Shown: one piece after another, positions 30,181-58,337 of the stretch
How positions within the stretch are numbered: position 1 is the stretch's first letter
Layout of the letters: the number at the start of each line of letters is the position of its first letter
Made by a program: the position numbers and the translations under genes
Assembly: GCA_036676985.1 (NCBI GenBank)
Contig: JAKFBU010000039.1
Span: 32,001 to 96,000, forward strand
Length of the DNA: 64,000 nt
Direction of reading: 5' to 3'
Origin: Candidatus Sericytochromatia bacterium
GTDB taxonomy: Bacteria > Cyanobacteriota > Sericytochromatia > S15B-MN24 > UBA4093
The notes under the pieces: model-generated
The model's input: the letters and a program-made list of their open reading frames with translations, nothing else
Database searches by the model: none
Told to the model about the DNA's origin: nothing

Positions 30181-30195
30181 GCCTGGAAATTGCTT

Positions 30196-30223: not shown

Positions 30224-30240
30224 GAACTGTTCGTGTGTCG

Positions 30241-30463: not shown

Positions 30464-30642
30464 GACCATCAAGTGGCAACTTCGGCCCCGAAGGCTCTTT
30501 AGGCAGGCGATTCGAGGTTACGGTTTCCTTGATTACTCTCACCTTGTCGGTTGGAATCCGTTTGAGACTTCGATCTCGGGGAAATCGATCCAGTAGAGCC
30601 TAAACGCGAGGTATTAGGCTACCACCACTCACAATTGCTAAA

Positions 30643-31446: not shown

Positions 31447-31457
31447 GTGGCCCCCCG

Positions 31458-32429: not shown

Positions 32430-32618
32430 TCTAGGAGCGAGCCCCTTTTAAGCCAGATTTAGGAACGAATTCCGAGTTGGGCCAACGATTAAAATAGATT
32501 GCAATTAAGTTATGAAACTAGCCTAGCTATCACTTTATCATCATACACTAAATCTTCTGGTCCGGGAACTTGCTTGGCTGGCTAAGCTCCTTGCTTAAAG
32601 CCATTATGGCTCATAGTG

Positions 32619-34024: not shown

Positions 34025-34795
34025 CTAGTGACCGCCGCCTTCGCCGTGCAGGTCGTTCTCCTTGCTGGCCTCCGCCTTGGCGAAGAGACCGATGGAGGCG
34101 ACGGCGGCCGCAACCGCGGCGACCTCACCCACGCCCGTCTCGGCGAGCAGGCCGCCGACCGCAGCACCCCAGTCCGCCGTGCTGGCGAGGGCGTAGTAGG
34201 CCTTGGTCTCCTTGGAGAGGCGCGGGTCGAGGAAGGCGGTGGCGGTGTCGTAGGTGCCCCAGACGGCGATGCCCACGCCCACGACCGGGATGGCCTTGGC
34301 CACACCGCGGCCCACCGAGCTCTCGGCGATGCGCGCGAGCGTTACCTCGGAGAGGCGGGGGAACTGGGTCTTCAGGCTGGTCAAGACGCCCTTGTAGGTC
34401 TGGGCGATCTTGGGCATGGCCTCGAGCAGAGGCTTGCAGAGCGTCGGATGGGCGTTGATCTTCTTGAGGAGGGTACCAGCGAGGTCCGGGGCGTAGCGGC
34501 CCATGTCGATCATGGCGTTGATGATTCGCGAGTCGAGGCGGGGGTTGTGGGCCAGGACCTCGGCGATCTCGGCCGCGATGTGCGGGGCCTCTTTGGCGAG
34601 CTTGGCGAGCTCGATGCCCGTGTGCGAGTTGTGGGCGGTGTGCCGGTTGTGCTCGTTGAAGATGGAGTCGTGCGGCGTGCCGTGGGAATTCTTTTGCTCG
34701 GCCTTGGCCTCGGGAGCCTTGTGATTGCCCGGCTCGGCGGTCTTCTTGGGGGGGACCTTGGCGCCGTGGGAACCGGCCGACTGAATTCCGCTCAT
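34025..34795 (-). CDS. Hypothetical protein with disordered N-terminus and Ala/Gly-rich hydrophobic C-terminus
   Basis: RBS GGAGG, host codon usage, KAIPVVGVGIAVW segment. Confidence 0.7.
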   Translation of the reverse strand: MSGIQSAGSHGAKVPPKKTAEPGNHKAPEAKAEQKNSHGTPHDSIFNEHNRHTAHNSHTGIELAKLAKEAPHIAAEIAEVLAHNPRLDSRIINAMIDMGRYAPDLAGTLLKKINAHPTLCKPLLEAMPKIAQTYKGVLTSLKTQFPRLSEVTLARIAESSVGRGVAKAIPVVGVGIAVWGTYDTATAFLDPRLSKETKAYYALASTADWGAAVGGLLAETGVGEVAAVAAAVASIGLFAKAEASKENDLHGEGGGH

Positions 34796-34935: not shown

Positions 34936-36396
34936 CTAATCAGCTTGGCGAAGGCGGCACTTGTCGACTTTGCCACTCGGCGTTCGGGGCAGGGCGTCCA
35001 CCAGCGTGACCTTGCGAGGTAGCTTGTACGGCGCGAGACGGGTGGACAGGGCCTGGATGACCTCCTCGGTGTCCACCGGTGCGGACGGCACGACGTAGGC
35101 GCGCACGATCTCTCCGAAGACCTCGTGAGGCTCCCCCACGACGGCCGCCTCATGGACACGGCCGTCCGCACACAAAGCTTGTTCGACCTCCCAGGAGGAG
35201 ACGTTGGCACCGCCCGAGACGATGATTTCCTTCAGCCGACCCCGAAGCGCCACGAAGCCTGCGGAGTCTATGACCGCCAGGTCTCCGGTCGAAAGCCAAC
35301 CGTCCTTCAAAGGGTCCTCGCCCAGGTAGCCGATCATGCGACTGGGCGTCCGGACCTGGAGCTCCCCTTCCGTCCCAGCGGGCAGGGGCAACTCGGGCTC
35401 GCGCAGATCCACCACCCGCAACTCAATGCCCCGCAAGGGTAGGCCAATGGAGTCGGCCCGTTCGTTGAGACTTTCGGCCGGCAAGGTCGTGACCCGTGGC
35501 CCCGCCTCGGTCAGGCCGTAGGTTACATGCACCCGGGCCTCGGTCTTGGTGGAGAACTCGGCGGCGAACTCGCGGAGCAGCGTGGGCTCGATGGGGGCCG
35601 CGCCGATCGTGAGGGTCTCGAGGGACGAGAGGTCGGATGCCGCGACGATGGGCGATCGCATCGACCGCTTGTCCTGAATGAGCCGCACGTGGGTGGGCGT
35701 CAGGGAGCTGACGGTGATCCGTTCGGTTTCGATGGCCTTGAGGTACGCCCGGGGCATGAAGGGGCCGCGCATCAGGACGAGCGTGCCGCCGTGCCACAGG
35801 GTGGCGATCAGCTGCGCGACGAGCGTCGCCGAGTGGTACATGGGCGAGACGACGAGGACCCGATCATCGGGCCCAAGTCCGATTGACTCGGCGTGGGCGA
35901 GGGCGTTCCAGACGGATCCCGCCTCGGAGAGGCGCGCGATCCGTGGCTGACCGGTCGAGCCCGAGGTCGGCACCAGAAGCTCCGCCCCCGGATGATGCCC
36001 CCCATGGTCGGTCTCGGACTCCTGCACGAAGGGCTCGGCCACGAGAGGCGCCGGGCCGTCCTGCGCCGCGGCCGCGAGCCCCGCGTTGACGAGCTTCACC
36101 GGGATCGTGAGCCCCGCGAGCAACGCTGCCCGCTCGTCGGGCGGCGTGGAGGGCGGCAAGGGTAGCGGGTGGGCCCCCAGGCGCAGCACCGCGAGCAAGG
36201 CCACGACGAAGTGGGTGTCGTTGTCGAGCATCAGGGGGACGATGGTCCCGGGCCCCACGCCGACGGCACGCAGGCGATCGCACAGCCCGCAGACCCTGCG
36301 CCGCAAGGTCGCGTAGCTCACGCGCTCCGCGCCCGTGACCAGGGCCTCGTGGCCAGGACGGGTGCGGGCGTGACGATCGAGGGCGGTATTGAGCAT
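34936..36396 (-). CDS. AMP-dependent acyl-CoA/acyl-ACP ligase
   Basis: TSGSTGQPR, YGLTE, TGD, GRLKE, LPRTPSGKVDK. Confidence 0.92.
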   Translation of the reverse strand: MLNTALDRHARTRPGHEALVTGAERVSYATLRRRVCGLCDRLRAVGVGPGTIVPLMLDNDTHFVVALLAVLRLGAHPLPLPPSTPPDERAALLAGLTIPVKLVNAGLAAAAQDGPAPLVAEPFVQESETDHGGHHPGAELLVPTSGSTGQPRIARLSEAGSVWNALAHAESIGLGPDDRVLVVSPMYHSATLVAQLIATLWHGGTLVLMRGPFMPRAYLKAIETERITVSSLTPTHVRLIQDKRSMRSPIVAASDLSSLETLTIGAAPIEPTLLREFAAEFSTKTEARVHVTYGLTEAGPRVTTLPAESLNERADSIGLPLRGIELRVVDLREPELPLPAGTEGELQVRTPSRMIGYLGEDPLKDGWLSTGDLAVIDSAGFVALRGRLKEIIVSGGANVSSWEVEQALCADGRVHEAAVVGEPHEVFGEIVRAYVVPSAPVDTEEVIQALSTRLAPYKLPRKVTLVDALPRTPSGKVDKCRLRQAD

Positions 36397-36398
36397 GG

Positions 36399-37169
36399 CT
36401 AGAGGCTCAGCATCCCGAGTTCGCGCCCGCCCGTGACGGGAATCTCGGCCCCCGTCACGTAGGAAGCCTGCACGGAGGCCAAAAAGGCGACCACGGCCGC
36501 GACCTCCTCGGGCGTGCCCTCGCGGCGCATGGCGATGGCCTTCTTCATAGCCTCGGCAGCCCGCTCGCTGAGGCCCGCCGTCCGCTCGGTGGCGATGCGA
36601 CCGGGGATCACGAGGTTGGCGGTGATGCCCTGACGCGCGTACTCCTGGGCGATGGTCTTGATGAGCCCCACGAGGCCCGCCTTGGCCGCGGCGTAGGCGC
36701 CCTCGGCAAAACCGCCCTGCAGGCCCATCAACGAGCCGAGAGCCATCACCCGGCCCCAGCCTCGCTGGGCCATGCCCGGAAGAAAGACCTGGGCGCAGCG
36801 GTAGAGGCCACCGAGATCCGTGGCGAGCACGTCGTTCCAGTGGGTCTCGGGGAGGGTGGCGAGGCGCGCGGGACGGTCTGGAGCGGCCGCCGCGTACACG
36901 AGCACCTCAACGGGCCCGAGCTCCGCCTCGATGGCCTCCCGGGCCTCCAGCCAGCGCGCCTGATCCGCCCGAGCGGCATCCAGGACGACCGATCCGGCCT
37001 GGGCCCCGCCGGCCCGCAGCTGATCGACGGTCTCAGCGAGCGCCTCGGCGCTCCGGCCCATGACGGCCACCCGCATGCCCTCGGCTCCGAGCGCGAGCGC
37101 CACGGCCCGGCCGATGCCGCGCGAGGCGCCGACGACGAGGGCGGTCTTGCCCGTGAGCCCCAAGTCCAT
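36399..37169 (-). CDS. SDR ketoreductase (FabG-like)
   Basis: VGASRGIG, YAAAK, PGRIAT, SYVTG. Confidence 0.9.
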   Translation of the reverse strand: MDLGLTGKTALVVGASRGIGRAVALALGAEGMRVAVMGRSAEALAETVDQLRAGGAQAGSVVLDAARADQARWLEAREAIEAELGPVEVLVYAAAAPDRPARLATLPETHWNDVLATDLGGLYRCAQVFLPGMAQRGWGRVMALGSLMGLQGGFAEGAYAAAKAGLVGLIKTIAQEYARQGITANLVIPGRIATERTAGLSERAAEAMKKAIAMRREGTPEEVAAVVAFLASVQASYVTGAEIPVTGGRELGMLSL

Positions 37170-37171
37170 GG

Positions 37172-37426
37172 CTAGGCCTCCCGGCTCGCGAAGTGGTGGG
37201 CGATCGCCCCCACCGTCGCCAGTCCCGCAAGCTCCGTCTCGTCGACCGCACGTCCGAGGCGCGTCTCGAGGCCCACGGCCAGGTCTAGGAGCGCCACCGA
37301 GTCCACGCCAAGGTCCTCGATCAGGCGGTGCTCTGGCCGGATCTCGGCCGGCGCGATGCGCGGACGGAAGTCGTCCATGGAGGCGAGGATCTCGCGCAGG
37401 TGAGTCAGGATGGCGTCTGGCTGCAT
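37172..37426 (-). CDS. Acyl carrier protein
   Basis: DLGVDSV phosphopantetheine motif, TVG; about 84 aa. Confidence 0.88.
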   Translation of the reverse strand: MQPDAILTHLREILASMDDFRPRIAPAEIRPEHRLIEDLGVDSVALLDLAVGLETRLGRAVDETELAGLATVGAIAHHFASREA

Positions 37427-37431
37427 GGATG

Positions 37432-38199
37432 TCACCATTGGTTGTTGAGGTGGGAGCCGCCCCCCACGGGCAGGACCGTCCCGGTGATGAAGCTAGCGGC
37501 CTCGGAGGCCAAAAAGACCACGGCGTCCGCCACCTCTTCCGGGCGGCCGAGCCGCTTGAGGGCCGAGCCCTCCGCGTGCCGAGCGGCCATCTCGGCGGTG
37601 GCGATTTCCCGGAACCGCTCCGTGTCGATGAAGCCCGGAGCCACGACGTTCGACGTGACGCCGAAGGGGCCGTAGTCAAGGGCGAGTCCGCGCGCCATGG
37701 CCTCCTGGGCCGCCTTGAGCGTGCTGTAGAGGCCGTTGCCCCGAGCCCCCACCGACGCGACCAGCGAGCCGATGAACACCACCCGACCCCAGCGCCGGCG
37801 CTTCATCGCGGGCAACACGAGGCCGTTGAGCTGGATGACGCCCCGGAAGTTGACGTTCATGGACTCCGTCCAGTCCTCGGGCGCGTACTGAGCGAGCCGC
37901 AGGCGCCGCGAGAAGCGGGCCGCATTGTGCACGAGCACCTCGGCATCACCCCAGTGGGACGTCAGACGCTCGTGCGCCGCGACGACCGAATGGGGATCCC
38001 CCATGTCCGCCACCAGCGACAGGGCCTCCCCCCCCGCCGCGCGGGCGAGCGTACAGGTCTCGTCCAGCAGCTCCGGGTTGCGGCCGAGCACCGCGACCTT
38101 CGCCCCCTGTGAGGCGAGCGCCACGGCGACCGCGCGGCCGATACCGCGGCCCCCGCCCGTGATGAGAGCTACCTTGCCTTCGAGCCCGAGCCGCCTCAC
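37432..38199 (-). CDS. SDR ketoreductase (FabG-like)
   Basis: TGGGRGIG, YSTLK, PGFIDT, SFITG; GTG start overlaps the upstream stop. Confidence 0.9.
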   Translation of the reverse strand: MRRLGLEGKVALITGGGRGIGRAVAVALASQGAKVAVLGRNPELLDETCTLARAAGGEALSLVADMGDPHSVVAAHERLTSHWGDAEVLVHNAARFSRRLRLAQYAPEDWTESMNVNFRGVIQLNGLVLPAMKRRRWGRVVFIGSLVASVGARGNGLYSTLKAAQEAMARGLALDYGPFGVTSNVVAPGFIDTERFREIATAEMAARHAEGSALKRLGRPEEVADAVVFLASEAASFITGTVLPVGGGSHLNNQW

Positions 38200-39641
38200 T
38201 GCCAGCCGCTCCGGCGCAGGCGCGAGGCCGGCGATCGCGACGGAAACATGCGCAGCGCCCCCAACAGCTCGTCGCGGGTATGCCGGGGCTCGATGATCCG
38301 GTCCACGATGCCGCGCTGGGCGGCCGCAAGGGCCGACGAGCCGCGCTCGGCCCACTCGGCGCCAAGGCGCTCCAGGGCGCTCTCGTCGTCCTTGCCGCCC
38401 AGGATCTGCATGGCGATCTCGGCGCCGGCCACGCCGATCTTGGCCTGCGGATAGGCGAAAACCACCGAGCCGCCGCCCTGCTTCGAGTTGAGCAGGCCGT
38501 AGGCGCCGCCGTAGCACTTGCGGGTGACGACCGTGAGGCGTGGGACGTCGGTGTTGAGGGCCTTGTAGAAGTTCGCGCCCTCGATGAGGATGCCGTCGTG
38601 CTCGGGCTCCACGCCGGGCAGGATCCCGGGCACATCCACCAGGAACACGAGCGGCAGCCCGAAGGCGTCGCAGAGCTTGACGAAGCGCGTCATCTTGCGG
38701 GCGGAGCGGGTCGTCACGGCCCCGCAGTCCACAGCCGGCTGGTTGGCGATGACGCCCACCGAGCGCCCCCCCAGACGGATGAAGCCCGTCACGACGTTCT
38801 TGGCCCAGCGCGGCCACAGCTCGCAGAAGTCCCCGCCGTCCGCGAGCCCCTGGATGTGGGGCACCACGTCGTAGGCATGCGCGGGGTGCGCGGGCAGCGC
38901 GGGCATGGGGCCCAGGGGCGAGCGCGCCGGGCGGGTGCAGCGGGCGTCCAGGTACGAGAGGACCTCGCGGGTCTGGGCGAGGGCCTCCGCCTCGTTGGGG
39001 GCCGTGCGGTGCGCCACGCCCGAGATCTCGGCGTGGGTCTTGGCGCCGCCCAGCTCCGGCAGTCGCACGCTCTGGCCCGTCGCGGCCCGGATGACCGCCG
39101 GGCTCGTCGTCACCAGGAAGCTCGAGCGCTCGACCATGATCACCACGTCGGACAACGAGGCGAGGTAGGCCGGGAAGCCCGAGCAGAAGCCCATGGCCAC
39201 GGCGACCAGGGGAATGCGGCCCGAGTAGACGATGTAGCGGTGGAAGACGGCCGTGGCCCCCTCTAGGGAGCCGACGCCCTCGCTCAGGCGCGCCCCGTTG
39301 GAGTGCAGCATGGCCACGAGCGGCGCTCCAGCGTCCACGGCGCGGTCCATGAGGTCCACGATCTTCTGGGCGCCCCTCTCGCCGAGCGTGCCCTCCAGGA
39401 CCGAGAAGTCCATGGCGTAGGCGAAGGTGATCCGGCCGTCGACCTCGCCGATGCCCGCGATCACCCCGTCCCCGCGGGCGTCCGCCGGCTGGGGGCCGAA
39501 GGACTGGGGAACGGGCTCGACCTCGGCGCCCCACTCGACGAAGGTGCCCGCGTCGAAGAAGGCCTCCATGCGCTCGCGGGCGGACATGGCCCCGTGGCGC
39601 ACCCGGCGCGCGGGCGCCTGCGGAACGACTTCCTCGATCAT
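38196..39641 (-). CDS. Acyl-CoA carboxylase/decarboxylase carboxyltransferase subunit (AccD/PccB-like)
   Basis: GDGVIAG, GARLSEG, ELGGA, GVIANQP, DVPG, RKCYGGAY. Confidence 0.9.
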   Translation of the reverse strand: MIEEVVPQAPARRVRHGAMSARERMEAFFDAGTFVEWGAEVEPVPQSFGPQPADARGDGVIAGIGEVDGRITFAYAMDFSVLEGTLGERGAQKIVDLMDRAVDAGAPLVAMLHSNGARLSEGVGSLEGATAVFHRYIVYSGRIPLVAVAMGFCSGFPAYLASLSDVVIMVERSSFLVTTSPAVIRAATGQSVRLPELGGAKTHAEISGVAHRTAPNEAEALAQTREVLSYLDARCTRPARSPLGPMPALPAHPAHAYDVVPHIQGLADGGDFCELWPRWAKNVVTGFIRLGGRSVGVIANQPAVDCGAVTTRSARKMTRFVKLCDAFGLPLVFLVDVPGILPGVEPEHDGILIEGANFYKALNTDVPRLTVVTRKCYGGAYGLLNSKQGGGSVVFAYPQAKIGVAGAEIAMQILGGKDDESALERLGAEWAERGSSALAAAQRGIVDRIIEPRHTRDELLGALRMFPSRSPASRLRRSGWQ

Positions 39642-40897
39642 GGCTGAGCCCCCACATGCGAGACGACGGCCATCTCCACGCCGTCGGCGATGGTGGCGGC
39701 CGCGTCGTAGCGCTCGATCTTGTCGGAAAGGCCCGTGAGCTTTTGCGTGTACTGATCCCGCCGTTCCATGGTCTCGATCACCGCCTGGCGCAAGAGGCCC
39801 GGCTTGTCGATGACGTGCCGGCGGTGGATGGCGCGGGCGATCCCCAGGCGCTCGGCGTCATGACCGTTCCACTCCTGGTCGCCGCGCATGGGAACGAGCA
39901 GCATGGGCTTCTTCGCCTTGATGGCCTGGTAGATGGTGCCGGAGCCGCCGTTGAGGATCGAGAGGGCGCTGCGCGCCATGACCTCCTCGCCGGGCAGGAA
40001 GTCCCGGATGGTGAAGTTGTCGGGGATCTGCCGGGGCAGCTCGAGGCCTGCGGTGGTCATGAGCACCCGGTAAGGCAGGTCGCGCAATTCCCGGAAGAGG
40101 GCCGGGAACACGTCCGGGTTGGCGGAACTGCCCGCCGAGAGGTAGAGCCAGGGCTGGTCGTGCGGCAGGTCCTCGTCCCAGCCGGCCGGAGTGGGCGCCG
40201 ACCAGTAGAGGGGGCCCGCGACGCGGATCTGCGGGGGCAGGTGGGCCTTGGTCTTGCACCACTCCGGGGCATCGGTGAGGTAGGTGGCGACGCTGCCCTC
40301 GAAGAGCCTGAGGATGTCCGCGTGGGGCGGCAGGCCGTGCTCGGCCAAGAGCGCGTTGTAGATCGTGACGTTGTCCTTGAAGATGCGCGCCGAGACGATG
40401 GGCACCAGCTGGTTGAGGATTGCCATGCCGAGCGTCCGGCCGAGCATGCCCGTGACCTTGAGCGTCACCTTGTGCTCGAGGGGTGGGGTGATCTTGGTGC
40501 CCCAGTAGTGGGTCCAGTGGGTGTTGGTCAGGGCGATGACGCCCACCTTCTCGATGGCCGCCGCCACGTGGATCGAGGGGCGGTAGTCGCTCACGATGAC
40601 CGACGGCTTGAGCTTCTGGATCATCTCGCGCTCGGCCGAGACCAGGCGGCGCAGGGACTCGGGCGTGTGGAAGTCGAAGCCGTTGACCAGCACCTCGTCC
40701 ATGGTCATGTCGAGGAGCGGGTAGACCTCGATGCCCGCCCGGCGCACCAGCGAGTCCTCGGGCAGGACGAACGGGCCGTCGCCCACGAAGACGCAGCGGT
40801 AGCCGCGGCGCTGCAGCTCCAGGGCGACCAGGAGCGAGCGGCCCACATGCGAGAGGCCCCACGAGTGCGGGGCGAAGACGATGGGCGCCTTGGTCAT
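39638..40897 (-). CDS. GT-B glycosyltransferase (GT1/GT28-like)
   Basis: LSHVGR, YLSAGSS, NGGSGT, VPMRGDQ. Confidence 0.85.
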   Translation of the reverse strand: MTKAPIVFAPHSWGLSHVGRSLLVALELQRRGYRCVFVGDGPFVLPEDSLVRRAGIEVYPLLDMTMDEVLVNGFDFHTPESLRRLVSAEREMIQKLKPSVIVSDYRPSIHVAAAIEKVGVIALTNTHWTHYWGTKITPPLEHKVTLKVTGMLGRTLGMAILNQLVPIVSARIFKDNVTIYNALLAEHGLPPHADILRLFEGSVATYLTDAPEWCKTKAHLPPQIRVAGPLYWSAPTPAGWDEDLPHDQPWLYLSAGSSANPDVFPALFRELRDLPYRVLMTTAGLELPRQIPDNFTIRDFLPGEEVMARSALSILNGGSGTIYQAIKAKKPMLLVPMRGDQEWNGHDAERLGIARAIHRRHVIDKPGLLRQAVIETMERRDQYTQKLTGLSDKIERYDAAATIADGVEMAVVSHVGAQP

Positions 40898-41931
40898 GAG
40901 CGGACCTCCTCGGTGGGGTGTTCGTCGGCGGGCACGCGGTAGAAGGCCACCCCGCCGGAGTAGCCGCCACCCAGCGTGGCGAGGGCGATGAGGGCGCCGG
41001 GCCGCCAGGCCGGCAGGCGACGGGCGCGCTCCAGGGCGATCGCGATGGACGCCGCCACGGTGTTGCCCGTCTCGGGGATGGTCACGACCCGCTTCTCCAC
41101 GGGCAGCTCAAGTAGCTCGAAGATGCGGTCGAGCATCACGAGGTTGGCCTGGTGCGGGATGACCATGTCGAGGTCGTCCAGGCCCACGCCCATCTCGCCG
41201 CATGCCCGGCGCACGAGGTCCGCCATGGCCCTGACGCCCTTGGCCGTGAGCTCGGCAGCGTCGCGGATGACGATGTAATGGCGCCCCGCCGCCACCGTCT
41301 CGGCGCTGGGGGGCTCGACGGTGCCGCCCGCGGGAACCATGACCATCTGGTTCAGGTCGCCCTCGGTCTGGAGCATGAGGCCGATGAAGCCCTCGTCCGG
41401 ACGGCTCGCCGGGCCCAGGATGGCCGCCCCCGCGCCGTCCCCGAAGATGGGGGCCGTGCGGCGGTCCTGGTGGTTGATGAAGCGCGATCGCAGCTCCGCT
41501 CCCATCACGAGCACCCGGGAGAGCCCCGTGTCCACCCCGCGCAGGCCGTGGTCGAGAGCAAAGAGAAAGCCCGCGCAGGCCGAGTTGACGTCCATGGCAG
41601 GGCAGGTGGCCCCCAGCTTGGCCTGCACCGCGCAGGCCGTGGCGGGGGTGGGCCAGTCGCCGGAGATGGTGGCGAGGACCATGCGATCCAGGTCCGTGGG
41701 GGCGAGGCCCGCATCCGCGAGGGCCGCGCGAGCGGCGGCCACCGCGAGGTCGGAGGTGGCAAGCGACGGGTCGGCCCAGTGGCGCGATCGCACGCCCGTG
41801 TGGCGCTCGATCCACTCCGGGGTGAGGCGCAGGCCCGTGCGCGCGATGAAGGCCTCGTTGGTCAGGGGCTCGCCCGGCAAGAAGGAGCCGGTGCCGAGTA
41901 GCCGAGCGGTCTGACGCGGACGGTAGAGCAC
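40894..41931 (-). CDS. KAS III (FabH-like) condensing enzyme
   Basis: SACAGF, FGDGAGA, IPHQAN, GNTVAAS; Cys-His-Asn intact. Confidence 0.92.
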   Translation of the reverse strand: MLYRPRQTARLLGTGSFLPGEPLTNEAFIARTGLRLTPEWIERHTGVRSRHWADPSLATSDLAVAAARAALADAGLAPTDLDRMVLATISGDWPTPATACAVQAKLGATCPAMDVNSACAGFLFALDHGLRGVDTGLSRVLVMGAELRSRFINHQDRRTAPIFGDGAGAAILGPASRPDEGFIGLMLQTEGDLNQMVMVPAGGTVEPPSAETVAAGRHYIVIRDAAELTAKGVRAMADLVRRACGEMGVGLDDLDMVIPHQANLVMLDRIFELLELPVEKRVVTIPETGNTVAASIAIALERARRLPAWRPGALIALATLGGGYSGGVAFYRVPADEHPTEEVRS

Positions 41932-41933
41932 GA

Positions 41934-42944
41934 CTAAATCCTCAGCACCACGCAAGCCGCCGTCACGCCACCCCCCACGGCCACCATGGCCACATGCTGC
42001 CCGCTCCGCAGGCGTCCTTCACGCCGGGCGTCATGCACCGACAGGAGCACGCTCGCCGAGCTCGCGTTGCCGTAGCGCTCGAGGGTGTGGAAGGCCCGCT
42101 CTTCGGGCACGCCGCAGTCGCGCAGGGCCCGGCGCAGGATAGGAGCGCTCGCCTGGTGCGGGATGACGAGGTCCACGTCGTCGGGAGCAAGGCCCGCGGC
42201 CTCGAGGGCCTCGCGGTAGACCACGGGGTAGCAGTCCCGGACGAGCTCCGAGACGTCTTCCGTGAGCCGGATCTGGTACTCGTCCCGGGCGATGGCCTCC
42301 GGGGTGGGCGGATAGAGGCCGGGGGGCATCATGGCCGCCGCGTGCTCCGCCTTGGTCCAGAGGGATCCGCCGAGAAAGGCCCCCGGGCCCCGACCCAGGA
42401 CCAGGGCTGCCGCCCCGTCGCCCGCGACCGCCATGGGCCCGGGCAGGCCGGGTGGCGTGAGCTTGGTCCAGGCCTCGGAAGCGACCAAGAGGATGGTGCC
42501 CGTGCCGAGGGACATCATGGAGGCTGCGACCGTGAGGCCGTAGAGGCTGCTCGAGCAGCCCGCCTTCAGCTCGAGGGCAAAGCCCCCGATGCCCAGGGCC
42601 TTGGCCACGTGGTTGCCTGTGTTCACGCTCGGGCGCGGGGCGGTGGTCGTGATCATGAGCAGCCCGTCGATGGCCTCGGGGGAGATCCCCGCGTCGTCGA
42701 GCGCGCGGCGGGCGGCCTCGATGGCGAGGTCCTGGCTCGTGGTCTCCGCGTGGTCCGCGGGCTGGCCGATGACGTGGGTCCAGTGGCGGGTCTCGACGCC
42801 CGAGAGCTTGCGCAGGCCTTCCGGGCTGAGGGCCTGGGTGGCGCCCGCGGCCTCGAGCAGCTCCTGGTTGGTGATCCGGCGCTCCGGAAGGGCCGCGCCG
42901 GCCCCCAGGATGGTCATCCCGTCGAAGCGACCGAAACGGCTCAT
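41934..42944 (-). CDS. Second, more divergent KAS III (FabH-like) condensing enzyme
   Basis: AGCSSS, AGDGAAA, IPHQAS, YGNASSAS. Confidence 0.9.
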   Translation of the reverse strand: MSRFGRFDGMTILGAGAALPERRITNQELLEAAGATQALSPEGLRKLSGVETRHWTHVIGQPADHAETTSQDLAIEAARRALDDAGISPEAIDGLLMITTTAPRPSVNTGNHVAKALGIGGFALELKAGCSSSLYGLTVAASMMSLGTGTILLVASEAWTKLTPPGLPGPMAVAGDGAAALVLGRGPGAFLGGSLWTKAEHAAAMMPPGLYPPTPEAIARDEYQIRLTEDVSELVRDCYPVVYREALEAAGLAPDDVDLVIPHQASAPILRRALRDCGVPEERAFHTLERYGNASSASVLLSVHDARREGRLRSGQHVAMVAVGGGVTAACVVLRI

Positions 42945-43723
42945 GCGCGCTCCGCCACGATGACGCCGTAGCCGAAGCGGCGCTTGTGGATCTTCCAGAA
43001 GGCCCCGAGGTCCCGGAGGTAGGCGCGGAACTGCGGATCCCGGACGAAGAGCCCGATCATGCGGGCCACGGCCTTGAGGCCGCCCGTGCCGTTGTCCCGC
43101 AGGAAGGAGCCCAACGTGGAGCGATCGGAGATGGTGGGGTGGAACTCCCAGTAGACGATGCGGAATCCCGCCCGCTCGTAGGCCGCGCGCCACTCGTCCT
43201 CGCTCAGGGGGTTCATGCGCACGCCCTCTAGGCCCTCGAGCGTGTCGAGCACCTCGGTCGGCACGGGCTCGTGGCAGGTCATGACGATGTCCGCGATGCG
43301 CCCGCCCGGCTTGAGCACGCGGCGCAGCTCGGGCAGCACCCGGTCCTTGTCCAGAAAGAGGGTCACGGACTCGGCGAAGAGCAGGTCGAAGGTCTCGTCG
43401 GCAAAGGTGAGGGCGTAGGCGTCGCCCTCGACGAAGGTCGCCTTGGCGCCGAGCGAGCGGGCGCGCTCCCTGGCGCGCTGGATCATACCGGGGCTGCGAT
43501 CGACCCCCGTCACCTCGGCCCCGTAGCGGGTCGAGAGCAGGCAGGACGTCTGCCCGACGCCGCAGCCCACGTCCAGGAGCTTGTCGCCGGCCTTGAGGCC
43601 CGTCTCGCGGATGAGGCGGTACGTCGCGGCCATGCCGCCCGGGTGCATGCTCGACATGCCGAGGGCGGCGATGCGCTCGAACCGGTCCAAACGCGCGAAA
43701 TCTTGAGCGTTGAGCTGCAGCAT
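42941..43723 (-). CDS. Class I SAM-dependent methyltransferase
   Basis: HPGG, LLDVGCGVG, FADETFD, RVLKPGG. Confidence 0.9.
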   Translation of the reverse strand: MLQLNAQDFARLDRFERIAALGMSSMHPGGMAATYRLIRETGLKAGDKLLDVGCGVGQTSCLLSTRYGAEVTGVDRSPGMIQRARERARSLGAKATFVEGDAYALTFADETFDLLFAESVTLFLDKDRVLPELRRVLKPGGRIADIVMTCHEPVPTEVLDTLEGLEGVRMNPLSEDEWRAAYERAGFRIVYWEFHPTISDRSTLGSFLRDNGTGGLKAVARMIGLFVRDPQFRAYLRDLGAFWKIHKRRFGYGVIVAERA

Positions 43724-43727
43724 GGGG

Positions 43728-43777
43728 TCATTATACCAGAGCGACACGGCGTTTGGACTACTGATATACTTTGTAGT
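43728..43777. promoter_or_regulatory. Back-to-back extended -10 promoters with an overlapping inverted repeat
   Basis: Minus TGGTATAAT 6 nt before ATG 43723; plus TGATATACT 43762-43770; ACTAC-N11-GTAGT at 43757-43777. Confidence 0.6.
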
Positions 43778-43808
43778 GCCCGTCCGATCTGCCAAAGAGG
43801 ATGCCCGC

Positions 43809-44627
43809 ATGTCCCGCACCGCGCCCAAGAGCCATGGCCCCATCCGTTTCGCGCTCTGGATCGTCTACGACCTGGCCTGGATCGCCTTCGCCGGTCTGCT
43901 CTACGGCGCGGGCGTGCTCGCCGCAGGGGCGTTCCTCACGTGGGTCCACGGGCTGTGGGGCTGGACCGGCGTCGCCTTCGGCGTGCTGCCCGCCTACATC
44001 CTCATGCTCCTGGTGGTGGTGGTCCTGATGGGCGTGGTGAGCGCCCTCAGCCCAAAGGTGACGCCGGGCATCTACGAGAAGTTCAAGCCGGGCCCCTTCT
44101 TCGCCCTCGTCTGGCGCACGGGCCTGAGCAACGTCATCTTCGCCATGCCCTTCCTGCGCACGGTGCACTTCATCGCCCTCCTGCGCTTCCTGTACTACCG
44201 CGGCCAGGGCATGAAGACCCATTACGAGAACTGGATCAGCCCGGACGTCACGATCGCCGACGCCTTCATGATCACCCTCGGGCGCGGCGTGAACATCGGG
44301 GGCCTCGCGAGCCTGAGCGGCCACCTGGCCCTGCCCGATCGCATGATCATCCTGCCCATCGTCATCGGCGACCGGGCGGTCATCGGGGCCCATGCCAAGA
44401 TCGGCCCGGGCGTGGAGGTGGGCGCGGACGCCATGGTGGGGGCGAACGCGACCCTGTCCATCAACGTCAAGGTCGGCGAGGGCGCCACCGTCGAGGCCGG
44501 CAGCTTCGTCAAGACGAGCACGATCATCGGCCCCTACGAGAAGTGGGGAGGCTTTCCGGCCGAAAAGATCGGTGAGGTGCGGCGCCCGAAGGCCGAGACC
44601 GCCTCAGCCGCGCCAAGCCAGGATTGA
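43809..44627 (+). CDS. Membrane protein with left-handed beta-helix (hexapeptide) acyltransferase-like domain
   Basis: Two N-terminal TM helices; IVIGDRAVIGAHAKIGPGVEVGADAMVGA repeats; WGGFPA. Confidence 0.8.
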   Translation: MSRTAPKSHGPIRFALWIVYDLAWIAFAGLLYGAGVLAAGAFLTWVHGLWGWTGVAFGVLPAYILMLLVVVVLMGVVSALSPKVTPGIYEKFKPGPFFALVWRTGLSNVIFAMPFLRTVHFIALLRFLYYRGQGMKTHYENWISPDVTIADAFMITLGRGVNIGGLASLSGHLALPDRMIILPIVIGDRAVIGAHAKIGPGVEVGADAMVGANATLSINVKVGEGATVEAGSFVKTSTIIGPYEKWGGFPAEKIGEVRRPKAETASAAPSQD

Positions 44628-44761
44628 CGGCAAAGCCCCGGATCGCATCCCCTAGGTACGGGGGCGGGAGCCTCGTCAGCAAGTTTCGCTCAAACTTAAC
44701 CGACCGTTAAGAAGCCGTTCTCCCGCTGGGCGCGATAACGCTCCTGGTGGAGGAGTACGAC

Positions 44762-45427
44762 ATGCGGATTCCAGGCTCCAACCTGATCATGAACCGGCTG
44801 GCCAGCAAGGCCCGCCAGGCCGCGCCCATCGAAAAGGCCGCCCAGGCCGTCAAGGCCGTGGCGCCCCGCGTGTTCTTCTTCCATGGCGTGGATGCCAAGG
44901 GGCTCAAGGACCACGGCCGCGGGGCCATGGACGCCCTCGCCGAGCGCTTCCGCAAGGAAGGCTTCCCCGAGGCAAAGGCCCTCCACTACAACAGCGACAA
45001 CTTCCTAGTCAATCAGCTCGCCATTCCCCGCGAGCAGCTGTTCGGCACCTTTTCGGATCGCCTGACCAAGCAGATCCTCGACGAGATCGATCGCATGCCG
45101 CTCGTGCCCGGCCAGAAGGTCAACCTGGTGGGCTACAGCCTCGGCACCAAGGTCGCGGCCAACGTGGCCGAGGCCCTCGACCAGCGCAAGGTCCCCGTCG
45201 GCGTGCTCGCCCTCATCGAGCCCAAGAACGGCAACACGGCGCAGGCCCTGCGCAAGCTGCCCAAGGCCGAGAAGGTCGTGCTCGTCGAGAACCAACGCAA
45301 CCTCACCTTCCAGAATCCCTTCGGCGACACCTTCGTCTCGAAGCACGTGCCCCACAAGAACCACTTCGAGATGGTCGAGCAGCCCGACGAGGGCATGATC
45401 CGCTACCTGCTGGATCAGATGAAGTAG
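44762..45427 (+). CDS. Alpha/beta hydrolase, thioesterase-like
   Basis: FFHG, GYSLG nucleophile elbow, NHFEM; RBS GGAGGAG. Confidence 0.75.
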   Translation: MRIPGSNLIMNRLASKARQAAPIEKAAQAVKAVAPRVFFFHGVDAKGLKDHGRGAMDALAERFRKEGFPEAKALHYNSDNFLVNQLAIPREQLFGTFSDRLTKQILDEIDRMPLVPGQKVNLVGYSLGTKVAANVAEALDQRKVPVGVLALIEPKNGNTAQALRKLPKAEKVVLVENQRNLTFQNPFGDTFVSKHVPHKNHFEMVEQPDEGMIRYLLDQMK

Positions 45428-45434
45428 CCAGCCC

Positions 45435-47624
45435 TTGCTCCACCGGTTCCTGGCTTCCCTCGCGCACGGCGTCCGCCGCTTCCCGCACCTCTTCATCGCC
45501 TGCTGGCTCATGCTGGCCGCCCTCGGGCTGGTGGCGCGGCCCGCGCTCGAATCGCGCCTCGTCCAGGCCGGCAACCCGCCCATCGGCAGCGAATCGGCCG
45601 AGGTCCAGCGGGTGCTGCGCGAGGCCTTTCCCCGCTACGCGGGCCTCTCTCACCTGATCGTCCTGCACCACCCCGATCGACCGCTCGATCCGGCACAGGA
45701 GCGTGCCCTTCGGGATCGGCTCGGCACCTTACCCCTCGTCCGCTCGGTCTCCGGGTGGGAGCTCGACGCTCGGGATACGGACGCGCTCCTGGTCGTCACG
45801 GACCCCGCGATCCCGGCCGTTCAGGCCGTTCAGGCGTTGCGCGGCGCCGTACCGCCGCTATCCGGCGTCGAGGTGTCGGTCACAGGGGCGTCGGCTGCCT
45901 CCTACGACCTGTTCGAGCTCCTGGGCGAGCGCCTGGCCGTCATCGAGGTCGTCTCCCTCCTGCTCGCCGCCCTCGCGCTCGGGTACGTCTTCGGAAGCCC
46001 GTTGCTCGTGGCGGTGACGCTGGGTGCAGGGCTCTGCTGCCTCGCCATCCTGCCCGGTCTGACCTACCTCGTGTCCCAGGGACTGCCCGTGAGCAGCCTG
46101 AACATGGTGATCGCCGCCGTGTTCGCCCTGGCCCTCGGCCTCGACTACCCGCTGTTCTTCCTGAGCCGCCTGCGCGAGGAATACGCGGGGGAGGCGGCAA
46201 CCGCCCTCGAGGCGAGCCTCGAGGGAGCCGGAGCCACCATCGTCGTGTCGGCCGCCGTGATGACGGCCGGCGGACTGTCCCTGTGGGCCGTGCCCTCCGG
46301 AGAGCTGCGCTCGATCGCCGTCACCATCGCGGGCTCGGCCGTGCTGGCGGCAGGCCTCACGCTCACCTTCATCCCGGCCCTGCTCGGGCTTTTCGCCCGA
46401 CGATGGGATCTCGGGCGCCAGCTCAGGCTCGAGCGGCGGGAGGCGGGCGATCGCCTCTGGGCCGAGCTCGCGCGCCGCGTGACGAGCCGCCCGGTTTCGG
46501 CCCTCATGGGGTCGCTCCTCTTCTTCGGGCTCCTGATAGCGCCGGTCACCCAGCTCAAGAGCTGGGCGCCGTACATCTCCCAGCTGCCGTCGGAGCTGGA
46601 GTCCAAGCGTGGCCTGGATCGGCTGCTCGCCCTCGAGGAGGGAGGCGGCATCAGCCCCCTCCTCGTGCTGTGGCAGGCCGACGGGCCCGACCAGGTGCTC
46701 GATCCGGGCTTCATCCGCCACATGCGGGGGGTTTCGCAGGATCTGACCCGGGATCCGCGCATCGCCCACGTGGAGAGCGCGGCCTCGCTGCCCGTGGCCC
46801 CGGAGGGCATCCGCACCCTCGCCCGGGCCCCGACCATGCTGCTCGGCGGCCGGGACCTGGGGATCAGCCCGGACGGCCGGGTGGCGCTCATGCGAGTGAC
46901 CTCGACGTACGCGCCGGACGATCCGCGGGGAGAGGGGCTGGTCGGTGAGCTGCGCGATCGCCTCCAGGCCAAGCCATACCCTGGCGTGACGCCGCTCGTC
47001 GGCGGCATGCAGGCGGAGCTGGCCGACACCCAGACAGCCTTCGCCCGGGGCCTGCCCTGGGTGGTCGGGACGACGCTCCTGTCGGTGACGCTCTTGCTCG
47101 GGTGGTACCTGCGATCGGCCGTCCTGCCCCTCAAGGCCCTCGTGACCAATCTCCTGCCCGTGCTAGCGGCCCTCGGCATCGTCGTCATGGTCTTCCATTG
47201 GGGTTGGGGGCCGGAGGTCCTGCGGGCGGGCCCGCCCATGCCCCTCCAGTCCACCACCGTCACGATCCTGCTCTCCGTGCTGTTTGCCGTGAGCATGGAC
47301 TACGAGATCTTCATGCTGGCGCGGATCCGCGAGGCCTATGACGCGAGCGGCGCACCGACAGAGGCGATCGCCCACGGCCTCAGCCGATCCGGCCGCGTGG
47401 TGCTGGGGGCCGCCCTCATCCTGCTCGGCGTCTTTATTCCCTACACGGCCATCGAGGTGCGCGGCCTCAAGGAGCTGGGAGTGGGCCTGTCCGCGGCCAT
47501 CCTGCTCGACGCGACGTTGGTGCGCCTGCTCCTGGTGCCCGCCGTCATGGTCCTGATGGGTCGCTGGAACTACTGGGTTCCCAGCAAGCAAGATTTAGCC
47601 AGATTTAAACAAACTGGGAACTAA
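45435..47624 (+). CDS. MMPL-family RND transporter
   Basis: Two halves with GLDYPLFFLSRLREE and SMDYEIFMLARIRE; DATLVRLLLVPA...WNYW. Confidence 0.9.
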   Translation: MLHRFLASLAHGVRRFPHLFIACWLMLAALGLVARPALESRLVQAGNPPIGSESAEVQRVLREAFPRYAGLSHLIVLHHPDRPLDPAQERALRDRLGTLPLVRSVSGWELDARDTDALLVVTDPAIPAVQAVQALRGAVPPLSGVEVSVTGASAASYDLFELLGERLAVIEVVSLLLAALALGYVFGSPLLVAVTLGAGLCCLAILPGLTYLVSQGLPVSSLNMVIAAVFALALGLDYPLFFLSRLREEYAGEAATALEASLEGAGATIVVSAAVMTAGGLSLWAVPSGELRSIAVTIAGSAVLAAGLTLTFIPALLGLFARRWDLGRQLRLERREAGDRLWAELARRVTSRPVSALMGSLLFFGLLIAPVTQLKSWAPYISQLPSELESKRGLDRLLALEEGGGISPLLVLWQADGPDQVLDPGFIRHMRGVSQDLTRDPRIAHVESAASLPVAPEGIRTLARAPTMLLGGRDLGISPDGRVALMRVTSTYAPDDPRGEGLVGELRDRLQAKPYPGVTPLVGGMQAELADTQTAFARGLPWVVGTTLLSVTLLLGWYLRSAVLPLKALVTNLLPVLAALGIVVMVFHWGWGPEVLRAGPPMPLQSTTVTILLSVLFAVSMDYEIFMLARIREAYDASGAPTEAIAHGLSRSGRVVLGAALILLGVFIPYTAIEVRGLKELGVGLSAAILLDATLVRLLLVPAVMVLMGRWNYWVPSKQDLARFKQTGN

Positions 47625-47684
47625 ATTTTACCGACCCGTCCCGGGCACCGTCCGATAAGCTCTGAGGGGAACCAACTGGGAAGG

Positions 47685-48986
47685 GTGGCACAAATGGCAG
47701 GACTGGTCGATTCTCGCAACTTCAGCTCGGCAGTGCAGCGGATGGCGGGCGCTCAGCGCTCCCCCGTGGAGGCGGGCGGCGGCCTTTCCAAGCCCAACGT
47801 CATCTCCATGCCCTCGCCGAACCAGAACGATCGGCCCGGTGGGATCGATATCGACACCATCGTCCTCCACCACACCGCCGGCGGCGGTCGGGCCGAGGAC
47901 ACCGGTCGCTTCTTCCAGAACGCCTCGGCGCAGGTGAGCTCGCACTACATCGTGGGCAAGGACGGCACCATCGTGCAGTCGGTCCCCGACAACAAGCGCT
48001 CCTGGCACGCCGGCACCAGCAGCTTCAAGGGCAAGGACGACGTCAACGACTTCTCGCTGGGCATCGAGATCGTCAACCTGGGCAACGGTAAGGATCCCTA
48101 CACCGATGCCCAGTACGATGCGCTCATCAAGCTCGTGGCCTGGATGTGCCAGACCTACAAGGTCCCCATGGACCGGATCACCGGGCACAGGGACGTGGCC
48201 CTCCCGCGCGGCCGCAAGGTCGATCCGTCCGATAACTTCGACTGGAACCGGGTTCGCAACGGCGTCGACAAGCTGCTCAAGGGTCAGCAGGCTCCGGCTC
48301 CCAAGCCCGAACCCAAGCCGGAACCCAAGCCCGAACCGAAGCCGGAGCCCAAGCCGGAGCCCAAGCCTCAGCCCGCTCAGGATACCGTTCAGATCAGCCC
48401 CGACGCCCGCGCCCAGGCGCCGGCGCCCGTCACGTCGCGCGACATCCAGCCCGTGGTGGCGAACGACATCCAGCCGTTCACCCCGCCCGCCGCACCGCCT
48501 GCGACCGCCTACGGGCCGCCCCTCTCGACCGCTCCCTACACCGCGGCGGTTCCTGTTTACCCGCAGGCTCCGCTCGCCTACGGCACGCCGACGCCCATGG
48601 GCACCATCGGCACGACCCCCGGCACTCCCTTGCCGATGGTCCAGCCCGCGGCCTTTGCCTACCAGCAGCCTGCTGCCTACGGGTACCAGCAGCCTGCGGC
48701 CTACGCGTATCAGCAGCAGGTCGCCTACCAGCAGCCCGCGACCCACGCGTACCAGCAGCCGGTCGCTTACCAGCAGCCCGCGACCTACGCGTATCAGCAG
48801 CCCGGCTACGGCTACGCGACGTACCAGGCCCCCGTGGCCTATCAGCAGCCCGTTTCGTACGCGGCCTATCAGCAGCCGGTCGCTTACCAGCAGCCCGTCA
48901 CGTACGCGTCCTACCAGCAGCCCGTCGCGTACCAGCAGCCCGGCTACGGCTACGTCCAGCCCGCCTACGGCTACGCCCAGGCCTGA
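47685..48986 (+). CDS. N-acetylmuramoyl-L-alanine amidase (Amidase_2) with PKPE linker and YQQP repeat tail
   Basis: IVLHHT, SSHYIV, SWHAG, SLGIEI, GHRDVA, RKVDP. Confidence 0.88.
   Translation: MAQMAGLVDSRNFSSAVQRMAGAQRSPVEAGGGLSKPNVISMPSPNQNDRPGGIDIDTIVLHHTAGGGRAEDTGRFFQNASAQVSSHYIVGKDGTIVQSVPDNKRSWHAGTSSFKGKDDVNDFSLGIEIVNLGNGKDPYTDAQYDALIKLVAWMCQTYKVPMDRITGHRDVALPRGRKVDPSDNFDWNRVRNGVDKLLKGQQAPAPKPEPKPEPKPEPKPEPKPEPKPQPAQDTVQISPDARAQAPAPVTSRDIQPVVANDIQPFTPPAAPPATAYGPPLSTAPYTAAVPVYPQAPLAYGTPTPMGTIGTTPGTPLPMVQPAAFAYQQPAAYGYQQPAAYAYQQQVAYQQPATHAYQQPVAYQQPATYAYQQPGYGYATYQAPVAYQQPVSYAAYQQPVAYQQPVTYASYQQPVAYQQPGYGYVQPAYGYAQA
48300..48372 (+). repeat. Coding tandem repeat (PKPE)n
   Basis: About six 12-bp units cccaagcc.ga. 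Confidence 0.85.
48657..48983 (+). repeat. Coding tandem repeat of AYQQP-type units
   Basis: Repeated (gcc)ta(c/t)cagcagcc. Confidence 0.85.
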
Positions 48987-51863: not shown

Positions 51864-51889
51864 GGGCAACCTCCTCGGGCGACAGGCCC

Positions 51890-58325: not shown

Positions 58326-58337
58326 CCCCCGTCACCC

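Follow-up and report, generated by a model that had tools for sequence, protein, structure and literature searches.

The stretch of DNA analyzed here, called the window, comprises 64,000 nucleotides from a genome of Candidatus Sericytochromatia bacterium (assembly GCA_036676985.1, contig JAKFBU010000039.1, positions 32,001 to 96,000 of the forward strand). Positions 34936 to 47624 of the window hold 12 genes that encode two distinct β-ketoacyl-acyl carrier protein synthases III (KAS III), termed KAS_A and KAS_B, an acyl carrier protein (ACP), a carboxyltransferase (CT), an AMP-dependent ligase, two short-chain dehydrogenases/reductases (SDR1 and SDR2), a glycosyltransferase (GT), a methyltransferase (MT) that uses S-adenosylmethionine (SAM), a left-handed β-helix (LbH) acyltransferase, a small hydrolase, and a transporter of the MMPL family (Table 1). 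This set is a real biosynthetic gene cluster that is conserved, with a horizontally patchy distribution, among Sericytochromatia-type bacteria, and its product is probably an exported, glycosylated hydroxy-acyl compound.

Table 1. Genes of the cluster, flanking open reading frames (ORFs), and more distantly related loci. Locations are window positions unless a genome and contig are given.
Feature	Location	Strand	Remarks
MT, class I SAM methyltransferase	42941-43723	-	First operon gene; Pfam Methyltransf_11
KAS_A, divergent "A-type" KAS III	41934-42944	-	336 aa; Pfam ACP_syn_III and ACP_syn_III_C
KAS_B, FabH-like "B-type" KAS III	40894-41931	-	345 aa; Pfam ACP_syn_III and ACP_syn_III_C
GT, GT1-like (GT-B) glycosyltransferase	39638-40897	-	419 aa; weak Pfam and PDB matches
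CT, divergent PccB-like carboxyltransferase (acyl-CoA carboxylase beta subunit)	38196-39641	-	481 aa; Pfam Carboxyl_trans
SDR1, FabG-like ketoreductase, accessory	37432-38199	-	255 aa; Pfam adh_short_C2 and KR
ACP, dedicated acyl carrier protein	37172-37438	-	88 aa; Pfam PP-binding
SDR2, FabG-like ketoreductase	36399-37169	-	256 aa; Pfam match
AMP-dependent ligase	34936-36396	-	Final operon gene; 486 aa; Pfam AMP-binding and AMP-binding_C
Divergent intergenic spacer MT/LbH	43724-43808	.	85 bp
LbH, membrane-anchored left-handed β-helix (hexapeptide) acyltransferase	43809-44627	+	272 aa; Pfam Hexapep
Small alpha/beta hydrolase, thioesterase-like	44747-45427	+	226 aa; GYSLG motif, weak Pfam Thioesterase
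MMPL-family resistance-nodulation-division (RND) transporter	45435-47624	+	729 aa; Pfam MMPL
256-aa ORF of unknown function	34025-34795	-	Directly downstream of AMP-dependent ligase
GH1 beta-glucosidase, signal-peptide-like N-terminus	32619-34022	-	Pfam Glyco_hydro_1 1.2e-88
L015	G002:C51:17000-36900; ~7900-19300		MMPL, GT2/GT21-like transferase, LbH, AMP-ligase, KAS_A-like, SDR, KAS_B-like, CT, ACP
L014	G032:C9:183000-202900; 5954-13895		KAS_B-like, CT, biotin carboxylase, biotin carboxyl carrier protein (BCCP), KAS_A-like, AMP-ligase, ACP-like ORF, SDR
L026	Soil metagenome contig		CT, KAS_B-like, LbH-like, KAS_A-like, MMPL

A preliminary description of the locus had listed a coupled minus-strand operon of nine genes with three genes divergent from it, and had noted that genes for elongation, dehydration, and enoyl reduction are missing. 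All 12 genes are present in that order according to Pfam and NCBIfam scans, which were combined with inspection of start and stop codons to refine the gene starts given in the ORF listing. By Pfam, neither the cluster nor any scanned ORF of the window encodes a domain of the FabF/FabB, FabD, FabZ/FabA, or enoyl-reductase kind, and the scanned ORFs likewise carry no polyketide synthase (PKS) domains of the kind expected for a Pks13-type multidomain condensase. Housekeeping genes for FabH, FabD, and FabF (contig C43) and for FabZ (contig C19) reside elsewhere in the host genome, as do three biotin carboxylase genes, none of which is in the cluster. Thus, the description of the cluster as self-contained was too strong: biotin carboxylase and BCCP, and probably FabD, must be supplied from elsewhere in the genome, and the CT must borrow one of the three biotin carboxylases of the host.

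The eight junctions between the minus-strand genes measure -4, +2, -4, -4, -4, -7, +2, and +2 nucleotides, a spacing that amounts to tight translational coupling. The ATG of KAS_A at position 42944 overlaps the MT stop codon (ATGA), KAS_B begins with a GTG at 41931 that lies 2 nucleotides past the KAS_A stop, and the ATG of SDR2 at 37169 is preceded by GGGAGG. The start of MT was set at Met41 of a longer ORF (42941-43843), and its orthologue in a related genome, G018, aligns from residue 44. The only sigma-70-like site between positions 34000 and 48200 is found on the plus strand at 43741-43770, within the spacer that separates MT from LbH. It matches 9 of 12 positions and, with one site observed against 0.4 expected, counts as weak evidence.

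Conservation and distribution of the gene set

The preliminary description had made its proposal depend on the genes occurring together in other genomes, and they were found to do so. Searches with tblastn located counterparts of all 12 proteins in the same order in genome G002 (52-75% identity) and of 10 of the 12, again in order, in genome G018 (48-69% identity); both genomes are labelled Candidatus Sericytochromatia. The two proteins without a tblastn match at the G018 cluster are SDR1 and the MMPL transporter, and the G018 contig ends 0.9 kb past the hydrolase gene. Only the SDR2 locus is matched by an SDR there; SDR2 is retained in all three clusters. The G018 locus (L010, G018:C59:8000-24025; 1969-3555 and 13211-14320) also contains a gene for a DegT/DnrJ/EryC1-type aminotransferase inserted between LbH and hydrolase, and a large serine recombinase gene about 0.8 kb past the AMP-ligase gene. 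The recombinase fits mobility of the cluster.

Close relatives of KAS_A are rare. Among 40 related genomes, only G002 (63%) and G018 (56%) carry a close homologue, the next best match reaching 37%, and a sample of 401 genomes of the phylum contained an orthologue in 3 (E ≤ 1e-70). No KAS_A orthologue was found in one genome of the same genus that is 87% complete. Searches with marker proteins against the cluster representatives of 5.8 billion proteins gave similarly small families. The KAS_A family comprises 21 representatives (the query included) with at least 56% identity, after which matches drop to 36% and 147 bits. The LbH family consists of 20 proteins, none of them below 50% identity, and the CT family of 13 representatives at 66% or more and one at 49%, followed by generic PccB proteins at 46% or less. 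Representatives of KAS_A, LbH, and CT share longest-contig sizes of 10237, 220800, 24025, 18255, 8054, 71819, 8875, 7952, and 205877, and these matching sizes imply that at least nine contigs carry two or more of the three markers.

Another sample of the same study yielded two independent contigs, of 4878 and 8256 nucleotides, that bridge positions 37353-42230 and 42280-48200 at about 99% identity. Because of this bridging, we conclude that the cluster is not an assembly artifact. Fragments of the cluster are also present in a groundwater study. Scans of collections of genome and metagenome contigs with KAS_A alone or with an alignment returned nothing past the G002 contig. A scan with the protein P0018 recovered relatives at 21-32% identity, which include the useful locus L026, and did not recover the 71.8-kb contig of P0018 itself. 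A plasmid search gave three matches on Ralstonia megaplasmids at 30% identity or less, which are uninformative, and the clusters recovered from the ESM Atlas were all generic ones of alpha/beta hydrolases and KAS III.

The encoded enzymes

Both KAS proteins match the two KAS III domains of Pfam above the gathering scores, and alignment to FabH structures places a Cys-His-Asn triad in each. In KAS_A the triad (Cys130, His263, and Asn293) is invariant in 18 of 18 family members, and it is present in all six B-type sequences compared. Because both enzymes keep these residues, both should be active as decarboxylative condensing enzymes, a prediction made from the conserved motifs. The best PDB matches are FabH proteins in either case: KAS_A scores 123.2 bits with 4dfe and 44.8 with OleA, whereas KAS_B scores 178.7 bits with FabH 4ryb, 152 with PqsD, 149 with BioZ, and 53.8 with OleA. 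For the NCBIfam KAS III subfamily PRK09352 (cut-off 249), KAS_B lies above the cut-off at 264.1 and KAS_A below it at 170.1.

The two KAS III types are separate lineages. In a quick maximum-likelihood tree of 30 selected sequences, the KAS III proteins associated with AMP-ligases, including KAS_A, form one group of 13 sequences apart from FabH (SH-aLRT 99). Those associated with CT, including KAS_B, form a group of six (SH-aLRT 87) that lies beside ordinary FabH proteins, among them the FabH of the host. The single head-to-head condensation of mycolate type that had been envisaged finds little support, since both proteins are nearer to FabH than to OleA and keep the triad.

The CT aligns to nearly the full length of Pfam Carboxyl_trans (E 8.1e-109, profile positions 5-478 of 493), with a score of 364 bits against 546-685 bits for the four other carboxyltransferases of the host. 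Because L014 encodes a biotin carboxylase and a BCCP directly after its CT gene, we regard the protein as a genuine subunit of a biotin-dependent carboxylase. The PDB matches rank PccB first with 347.6 bits, followed by AccD5 (299), MccB 5inf (283), AccD6 (280), AccD4 (267.3), and a long-chain carboxylase (139.6).

The active site of the CT departs from that of its relatives. All three orthologues have SGF in place of the AGG oxyanion loop and GGAYG in place of GGAYD, whereas two housekeeping paralogues have AGG and GGAYD. The position of the PccB Asp is occupied by Gly, Val, or Ala. According to Ray et al. (2016, PMC5187497), PccB accepts longer chains once the Asp of GGAYD is replaced. That paper also gives Gly161 in the medium-chain enzyme MccB and Phe in all enzymes for four carbons or fewer. 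The CT keeps Phe (TAVFHRY) at the position that should correspond, as judged from the spacing of the residues named by Ray et al. With PccB as best match and Phe retained, the CT appears to lean toward short-chain substrates. A preliminary proposal that it carboxylates a fatty chain in the manner of AccD4 is accordingly disfavored by these comparisons.

The ACP matches Pfam PP-binding (4.8e-9), carries the phosphopantetheine-serine motif GVDSV, and is 62% identical to its counterpart in G002 and 58% to that in G018. SDR1 (adh_short_C2, 7e-56; KR, 8.5e-12) scores 197.8 with the FabG subfamily of NCBIfam against a cut-off of 222. SDR2, with 70% identity in G002 and 69% in G018, scores 201.6 with the NCBIfam 3-oxoacyl-ACP reductase model, for which the cut-off is 297.75. 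The AMP-ligase (AMP-binding, 2.4e-62, together with AMP-binding_C) reaches the cut-off of none of the best 25 of 100 matching NCBIfam families; the top family is the long-chain-fatty-acid-CoA ligase PRK06187 (313 versus 476). Its best PDB matches, at 206 bits, are a feruloyl-CoA synthetase and a fatty-acyl-CoA synthetase. No fatty acyl-AMP ligase (FAAL) model is found among the same best 25 families, and the parallel to FadD32 that had been drawn for this 486-aa, CoA-ligase-like protein is not supported. A ligase of the cispentacin type (AmcH) was considered and rejected, with a score of 219 against a cut-off of 370 and no FabF-type ketosynthase pair in the cluster.

The remaining proteins are predicted to modify or export the product. 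MT matches Pfam Methyltransf_11 (6.2e-25), and its best NCBIfam family is DVU_1556 (114 bits, cut-off 155), a score too low to place it in a specific family. GT, which is 72% identical to its counterpart in G002 and 59% to that in G018, has weak Pfam matches (EryCIII-like_C, 23.3 bits; Glyco_tran_28_C, 22.2 bits) and scores 67.4 bits with NCBIfam MGT TIGR01426, under the cut-off of 260. Residues ~224-411 align with GT1 enzymes in the PDB (7vm0, YjiC, CalG2/G4, and OleD/OleI) at E values of 1e-10 to 1e-5. These matches suggest a general likeness to GT1/GT-B enzymes and nothing narrower.

LbH (Hexapep, 5e-11) has three or four hydrophobic segments within residues 14-128. It shares with proteins of the Pls/PosA type the combination of membrane segments and LbH, and it matches their terminal domain weakly (TIGR02353, 43.6 bits against a cut-off of 423.1, in the hexapeptide part only). 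Further weak NCBIfam matches are to LpxD (36 bits) and to heptaprenylglyceryl-phosphate O-acetyltransferase (34 bits). All three orthologues of the hydrolase share the nucleophile motif GYSLG and two invariant His residues. These orthologues match Pfam Thioesterase weakly (best E 2.6e-6), the protein of the window scoring 20.6 bits against a cut-off of 26.4, and no PDB sequence match was found at E ≤ 1. The transporter matches Pfam MMPL in two stretches (9e-66, 222.5 bits), has about 11-12 membrane spans by hydrophobicity, and is 52% identical to its counterpart in G002. Its NCBIfam scores are 171 bits for the actII MMPL subfamily (cut-off 874.7) and 159.3 for MmpL3 (cut-off 1400). Weak BioC matches (51-53 bits), together with the BioZ structure matched by KAS_B, raised the idea of pimelate chemistry of the BioC/BioH/BioZ kind. 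This candidate was set aside, as MT and hydrolase are absent from the paralogous core clusters.

A candidate pathway and its alternatives

More distant loci reveal which genes keep company. L015 is a second, paralogous nine-gene locus in G002 that lacks methyltransferase, hydrolase, and second SDR. L014 is an eight-gene operon from a more distant family of the same class and has no GT, LbH, or MMPL gene. An A-type KAS gene adjoins an AMP-ligase gene in L004, L005, L013, L014, and L015, and CT adjoins a B-type KAS gene in all three looser loci that have both (L014, L015, and L026). All 13 genomes of families f6 and f7 have a homologue of the A-type enzyme. The shared core is therefore AMP-ligase, ACP, A-type KAS, SDR, B-type KAS, and CT, and neither dehydratase nor enoyl reductase is found in the window cluster, L015, or L014. 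Because L015 has a GT2/GT21-like transferase, an unrelated type, in place of GT1 yet retains LbH and MMPL, we conclude that glycosylation and export belong to the system. The L015 order of AMP-ligase, KAS_A-like, SDR, KAS_B-like, CT, and ACP genes is colinear with the reaction order proposed below.

We favor, at not quite an even chance, the reading that the cluster encodes a discrete, noniterative "mini type II" line, in which two decarboxylative extensions with ketoreduction on a dedicated ACP are followed by glycosylation, tailoring, and MMPL export. What was computed is gene content, motifs, conservation, rarity, and the two gene pairings; from these we infer which substrates are used, in what order the steps run, and what is made. 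The AMP-ligase would activate a carboxylic acid primer, either by forming the CoA thioester or by loading it straight onto the ACP of the cluster. KAS_A would condense this primer decarboxylatively with a malonyl-type unit, and a FabG-like SDR would reduce the resulting 3-keto group. The CT, together with biotin carboxylase and BCCP from elsewhere in the genome, would produce a short extender of the malonyl, methylmalonyl, or ethylmalonyl type. KAS_B would then run the second condensation and the second SDR would reduce the new keto group, which would yield a 3,5-dihydroxy (or 5-hydroxy-3-oxo) acyl thioester. The chain might be off-loaded from the ACP by the small hydrolase, by the membrane-bound LbH acyltransferase, or by both. 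The GT1-like enzyme would attach a sugar, MT and LbH would tailor the compound, and the MMPL pump would export it. The earlier label "glycolipid-type" is plausible for such a product.

Several points weigh against this scheme. The roles of the enzymes are read from their sequences, and the order of the two condensations is suggested by the gene order of a single paralogous locus, L015. FabH-type enzymes normally use acyl-CoA primers, and a second KAS III that takes a 3-hydroxyacyl-ACP would be unusual. Ser replaces the triad Asn in 4 of the 13 A-type sequences, all from one distant family, and the ancestral activity of this type may not have been decarboxylative. With SGF and the Asp-to-Gly change in its active site, the CT may not obey the rules derived from PccB and MccB. 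The carboxylase is a dedicated one, and in L014 it has a biotin carboxylase and a BCCP of its own, a hint that its substrate is unusual and not simply acetyl-CoA. MMPL pumps also export nonlipid polyketides, so the product need not be a lipid. Finally, tailoring differs between clusters, G018 having no SDR1 and an additional DegT-type aminotransferase, and the chemistry is to that extent variable.

The cluster could instead be a module for starter units, in which AMP-ligase, ACP, KAS III, and SDR prime with an unusual acid, the type II fatty acid synthase (FAS) of the host (FabF, FabG, FabZ, and FabI) elongates, and GT, LbH, and MMPL make an envelope glycolipid of the chain. The complete housekeeping set on contigs C43 and C19 would be available in trans, KAS_B passes the cut-off of the generic KAS III subfamily, and a KAS III with a dedicated ACP is a known design for type II polyketide starters. 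We consider this unlikely, however, because the two FabG-like SDRs and the second KAS III would duplicate what the host already has and the cluster carries its own CT, and the recurrence of the core in L014 without GT, LbH, and MMPL suggests a finished small unit rather than a primer. A product outside lipid chemistry also seems improbable, although several matches point that way. It would be a small glycosylated polyketide-like antibiotic or signal, with the sugar as protecting group, the MMPL protein as efflux pump, and the GH1 beta-glucosidase secreted to deglycosylate the compound outside the cell. Oleandomycin follows such a scheme of glycosylation, export, and reactivation. The best NCBIfam match of the transporter is the actII subfamily. 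GT is similar to GT1 enzymes of the macrolide type, among them OleD/OleI, and the protein of known structure that best matches the AMP-ligase carries the annotation of a feruloyl-CoA synthetase. The GH1 gene, whose product has a signal-like N-terminus, follows 0.9 kb downstream in the same orientation. The GH1 protein and the neighboring 256-aa ORF may form a sugar-removing partner for the glycoside in this genome only. However, because neither was found at the G002 or G018 loci, both fall outside the conserved cluster. Moreover, the paralogous L015 uses a GT21-like transferase, from a family that acts on membrane lipids, and the membrane-embedded LbH points to a hydrophobic substrate.

Doubtful as well is a mycolate-like route, in which the CT would carboxylate a fatty acyl-CoA at C2, a KAS III would join the alkylmalonyl unit to a chain activated by the AMP-ligase, and an SDR would yield a 2-alkyl-3-hydroxy acid for glycosylation and MMPL export. 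The parts do parallel FadD32, AccD4, Pks13, CmrA, and MmpL3, and the cluster has no genes for iterative elongation. The CT belongs to a dedicated, divergent clade with its own biotin carboxylase and BCCP in L014, which fits an unusual substrate, and it adjoins the KAS_B-type gene in the three looser loci that have both. In addition, the replacement of the PccB Asp by Gly, Val, or Ala is a change tied to acceptance of longer chains by Ray et al. (2016, PMC5187497). Yet the CT scores far better with PccB than with AccD4 or the long-chain carboxylase and, by the inferred mapping, keeps Phe where MccB has Gly; the AMP-ligase resembles CoA ligases rather than any FAAL among its best 25 families; neither KAS III is close to head-to-head enzymes of the OleA type; and the transporter is far from the MmpL3 cut-off. 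Two KAS III enzymes, both predicted to be active, and two SDRs would also be a surplus for a single condensation. A broader version strikes us as about equally doubtful: that nonphotosynthetic relatives of cyanobacteria independently assembled a mycolate-style route from discrete enzymes, with alkylmalonyl units made through a dedicated biotin carboxylase, head-to-head joining by FabH-derived KAS III, and MMPL placement of a glycosylated, alpha-branched beta-hydroxy envelope lipid. If this were true, the shared core would mark out a broader group of pathways to branched lipids, so far undescribed, among soil bacteria (L014, L015, and L026). A chance neighborhood of unrelated lipid genes or a misassembled contig is, by contrast, extremely improbable. 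The host is a metagenome-assembled draft of 4.68 Mb in 79 contigs with 5.09% estimated contamination; however, two other genomes have the same order at 48-75% protein identity, most junctions are 4-bp overlaps or 2-nucleotide gaps, independent contigs bridge the cluster, and the marker families share the same narrow distribution.

Surroundings and comparison with known systems

On the side of the GH1 gene, the cluster is flanked by a low-GC island (30001-32600; GC 0.475 in 30001-32000 versus ~0.68 elsewhere) that was probably acquired horizontally. It contains genes for a HipA-like kinase (31458-32429, minus strand) and a DUF3037 protein (30643-31446, minus strand). Directly after the MMPL gene, positions 47685-48986 encode an N-acetylmuramoyl-L-alanine amidase (Amidase_2) with a proline-rich stretch, which is not conserved at the related loci. 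A region of surface-polysaccharide type (50685-62687) follows, with several GT4 glycosyltransferases, two right-handed beta-helix (NosD-like) proteins, and a Polysacc_synt flippase. The window also encodes a 1610-aa bacterial alpha-2-macroglobulin and both subunits of cytochrome bd oxidase (7777-12609 and 20958-23370). Elsewhere in the host genome, a type I polyketide synthase is encoded by an open frame of 2198 aa (G000:C30:43125-45629), which has both a ketosynthase and an acyltransferase domain.

The preliminary description had not recognized the gene set as a described pathway, and our searches agree: no matching pathway was found in the full-text literature (supplements excluded), and no curated NCBIfam pathway model is reached at its cut-off, the generic KAS III subfamily for KAS_B being the only hit of that strength. 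Sericytochromatia are uncultured, and we found no description of their specialized lipid or metabolite chemistry in print. Orphan clusters are common, and the present value of this one is moderate. Solving it would reveal the capabilities of discrete KAS III enzymes outside fatty-acid priming and would give a function to a core that recurs in several soil bacteria. Should the product prove to be an envelope glycolipid, it would also inform on the cell surface of the closest nonphotosynthetic relatives of cyanobacteria.

Among characterized systems, the mycolate system of the Corynebacteriales (FadD32, AccD4 carboxylase, Pks13, CmrA, and MmpL3) has the same categories of adenylating enzyme, carboxyltransferase, condensing enzyme, ketoreductase, and MMPL exporter. 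The window differs from it in having no Pks13-type megasynthase, a CT nearer to PccB, an AMP-ligase that is not FAAL-like, an MMPL protein far under the MmpL3 cut-off, and two condensing enzymes with two reductases. The route to alkylmalonyl-CoA in stambomycin biosynthesis (PMC5187497) likewise combines an acyl-CoA synthetase with a PccB-like beta subunit (MccB) encoded in the cluster, BC-BCCP (biotin carboxylase and carrier) encoded elsewhere, and a small residue in place of the Asp. However, the extender made in the window would feed discrete KAS III enzymes and not a modular polyketide synthase, and the CT, which is moderately similar to MccB (5inf, 283 bits), keeps Phe at the position that, by the inferred mapping, corresponds to Gly161.

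Aryl-polyene and flexirubin clusters have a similar complement of accessory genes, namely AMP-ligase, ACP, ketoreductase, thioesterase, methyltransferase, glycosyltransferase, acyltransferase, and an MMPL/RND exporter. They use ketosynthases of the FabF/FabB type and dehydratases to make the polyene, whereas neither is encoded among the 12 genes or their neighbors. OleABCD systems for olefins and beta-lactones, and pairs of the LstAB type, resemble the cluster in having tandem thiolase-fold enzymes with AMP-ligase, SDR, and alpha/beta hydrolase nearby. Here, however, the two KAS III proteins score 45 and 54 bits with OleA versus 123 and 179 with FabH, the SDRs are of the FabG type, and the presence of CT and ACP fits decarboxylative rather than OleA-type chemistry.

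Initiation and the first cycle of bacterial type II FAS (FabH, FabG, and ACP), along with the KAS III starter modules of type II polyketide synthases, offer a further likeness: discrete Cys-His-Asn KAS III enzymes, one of which (KAS_B) lies above the NCBIfam cut-off, FabG-like reductases, and a dedicated ACP. The window differs from these systems in combining two KAS III lineages in the absence of FabD, FabF, FabZ, and FabI, in placing KAS_A outside the FabH clade and below the cut-offs, and in adding its own CT, AMP-ligase, GT, LbH, and MMPL. A compact 12.7-kb cluster that joins two KAS III lineages to a private carboxylase without elongation machinery represents a design for which we found no counterpart among characterized pathways.

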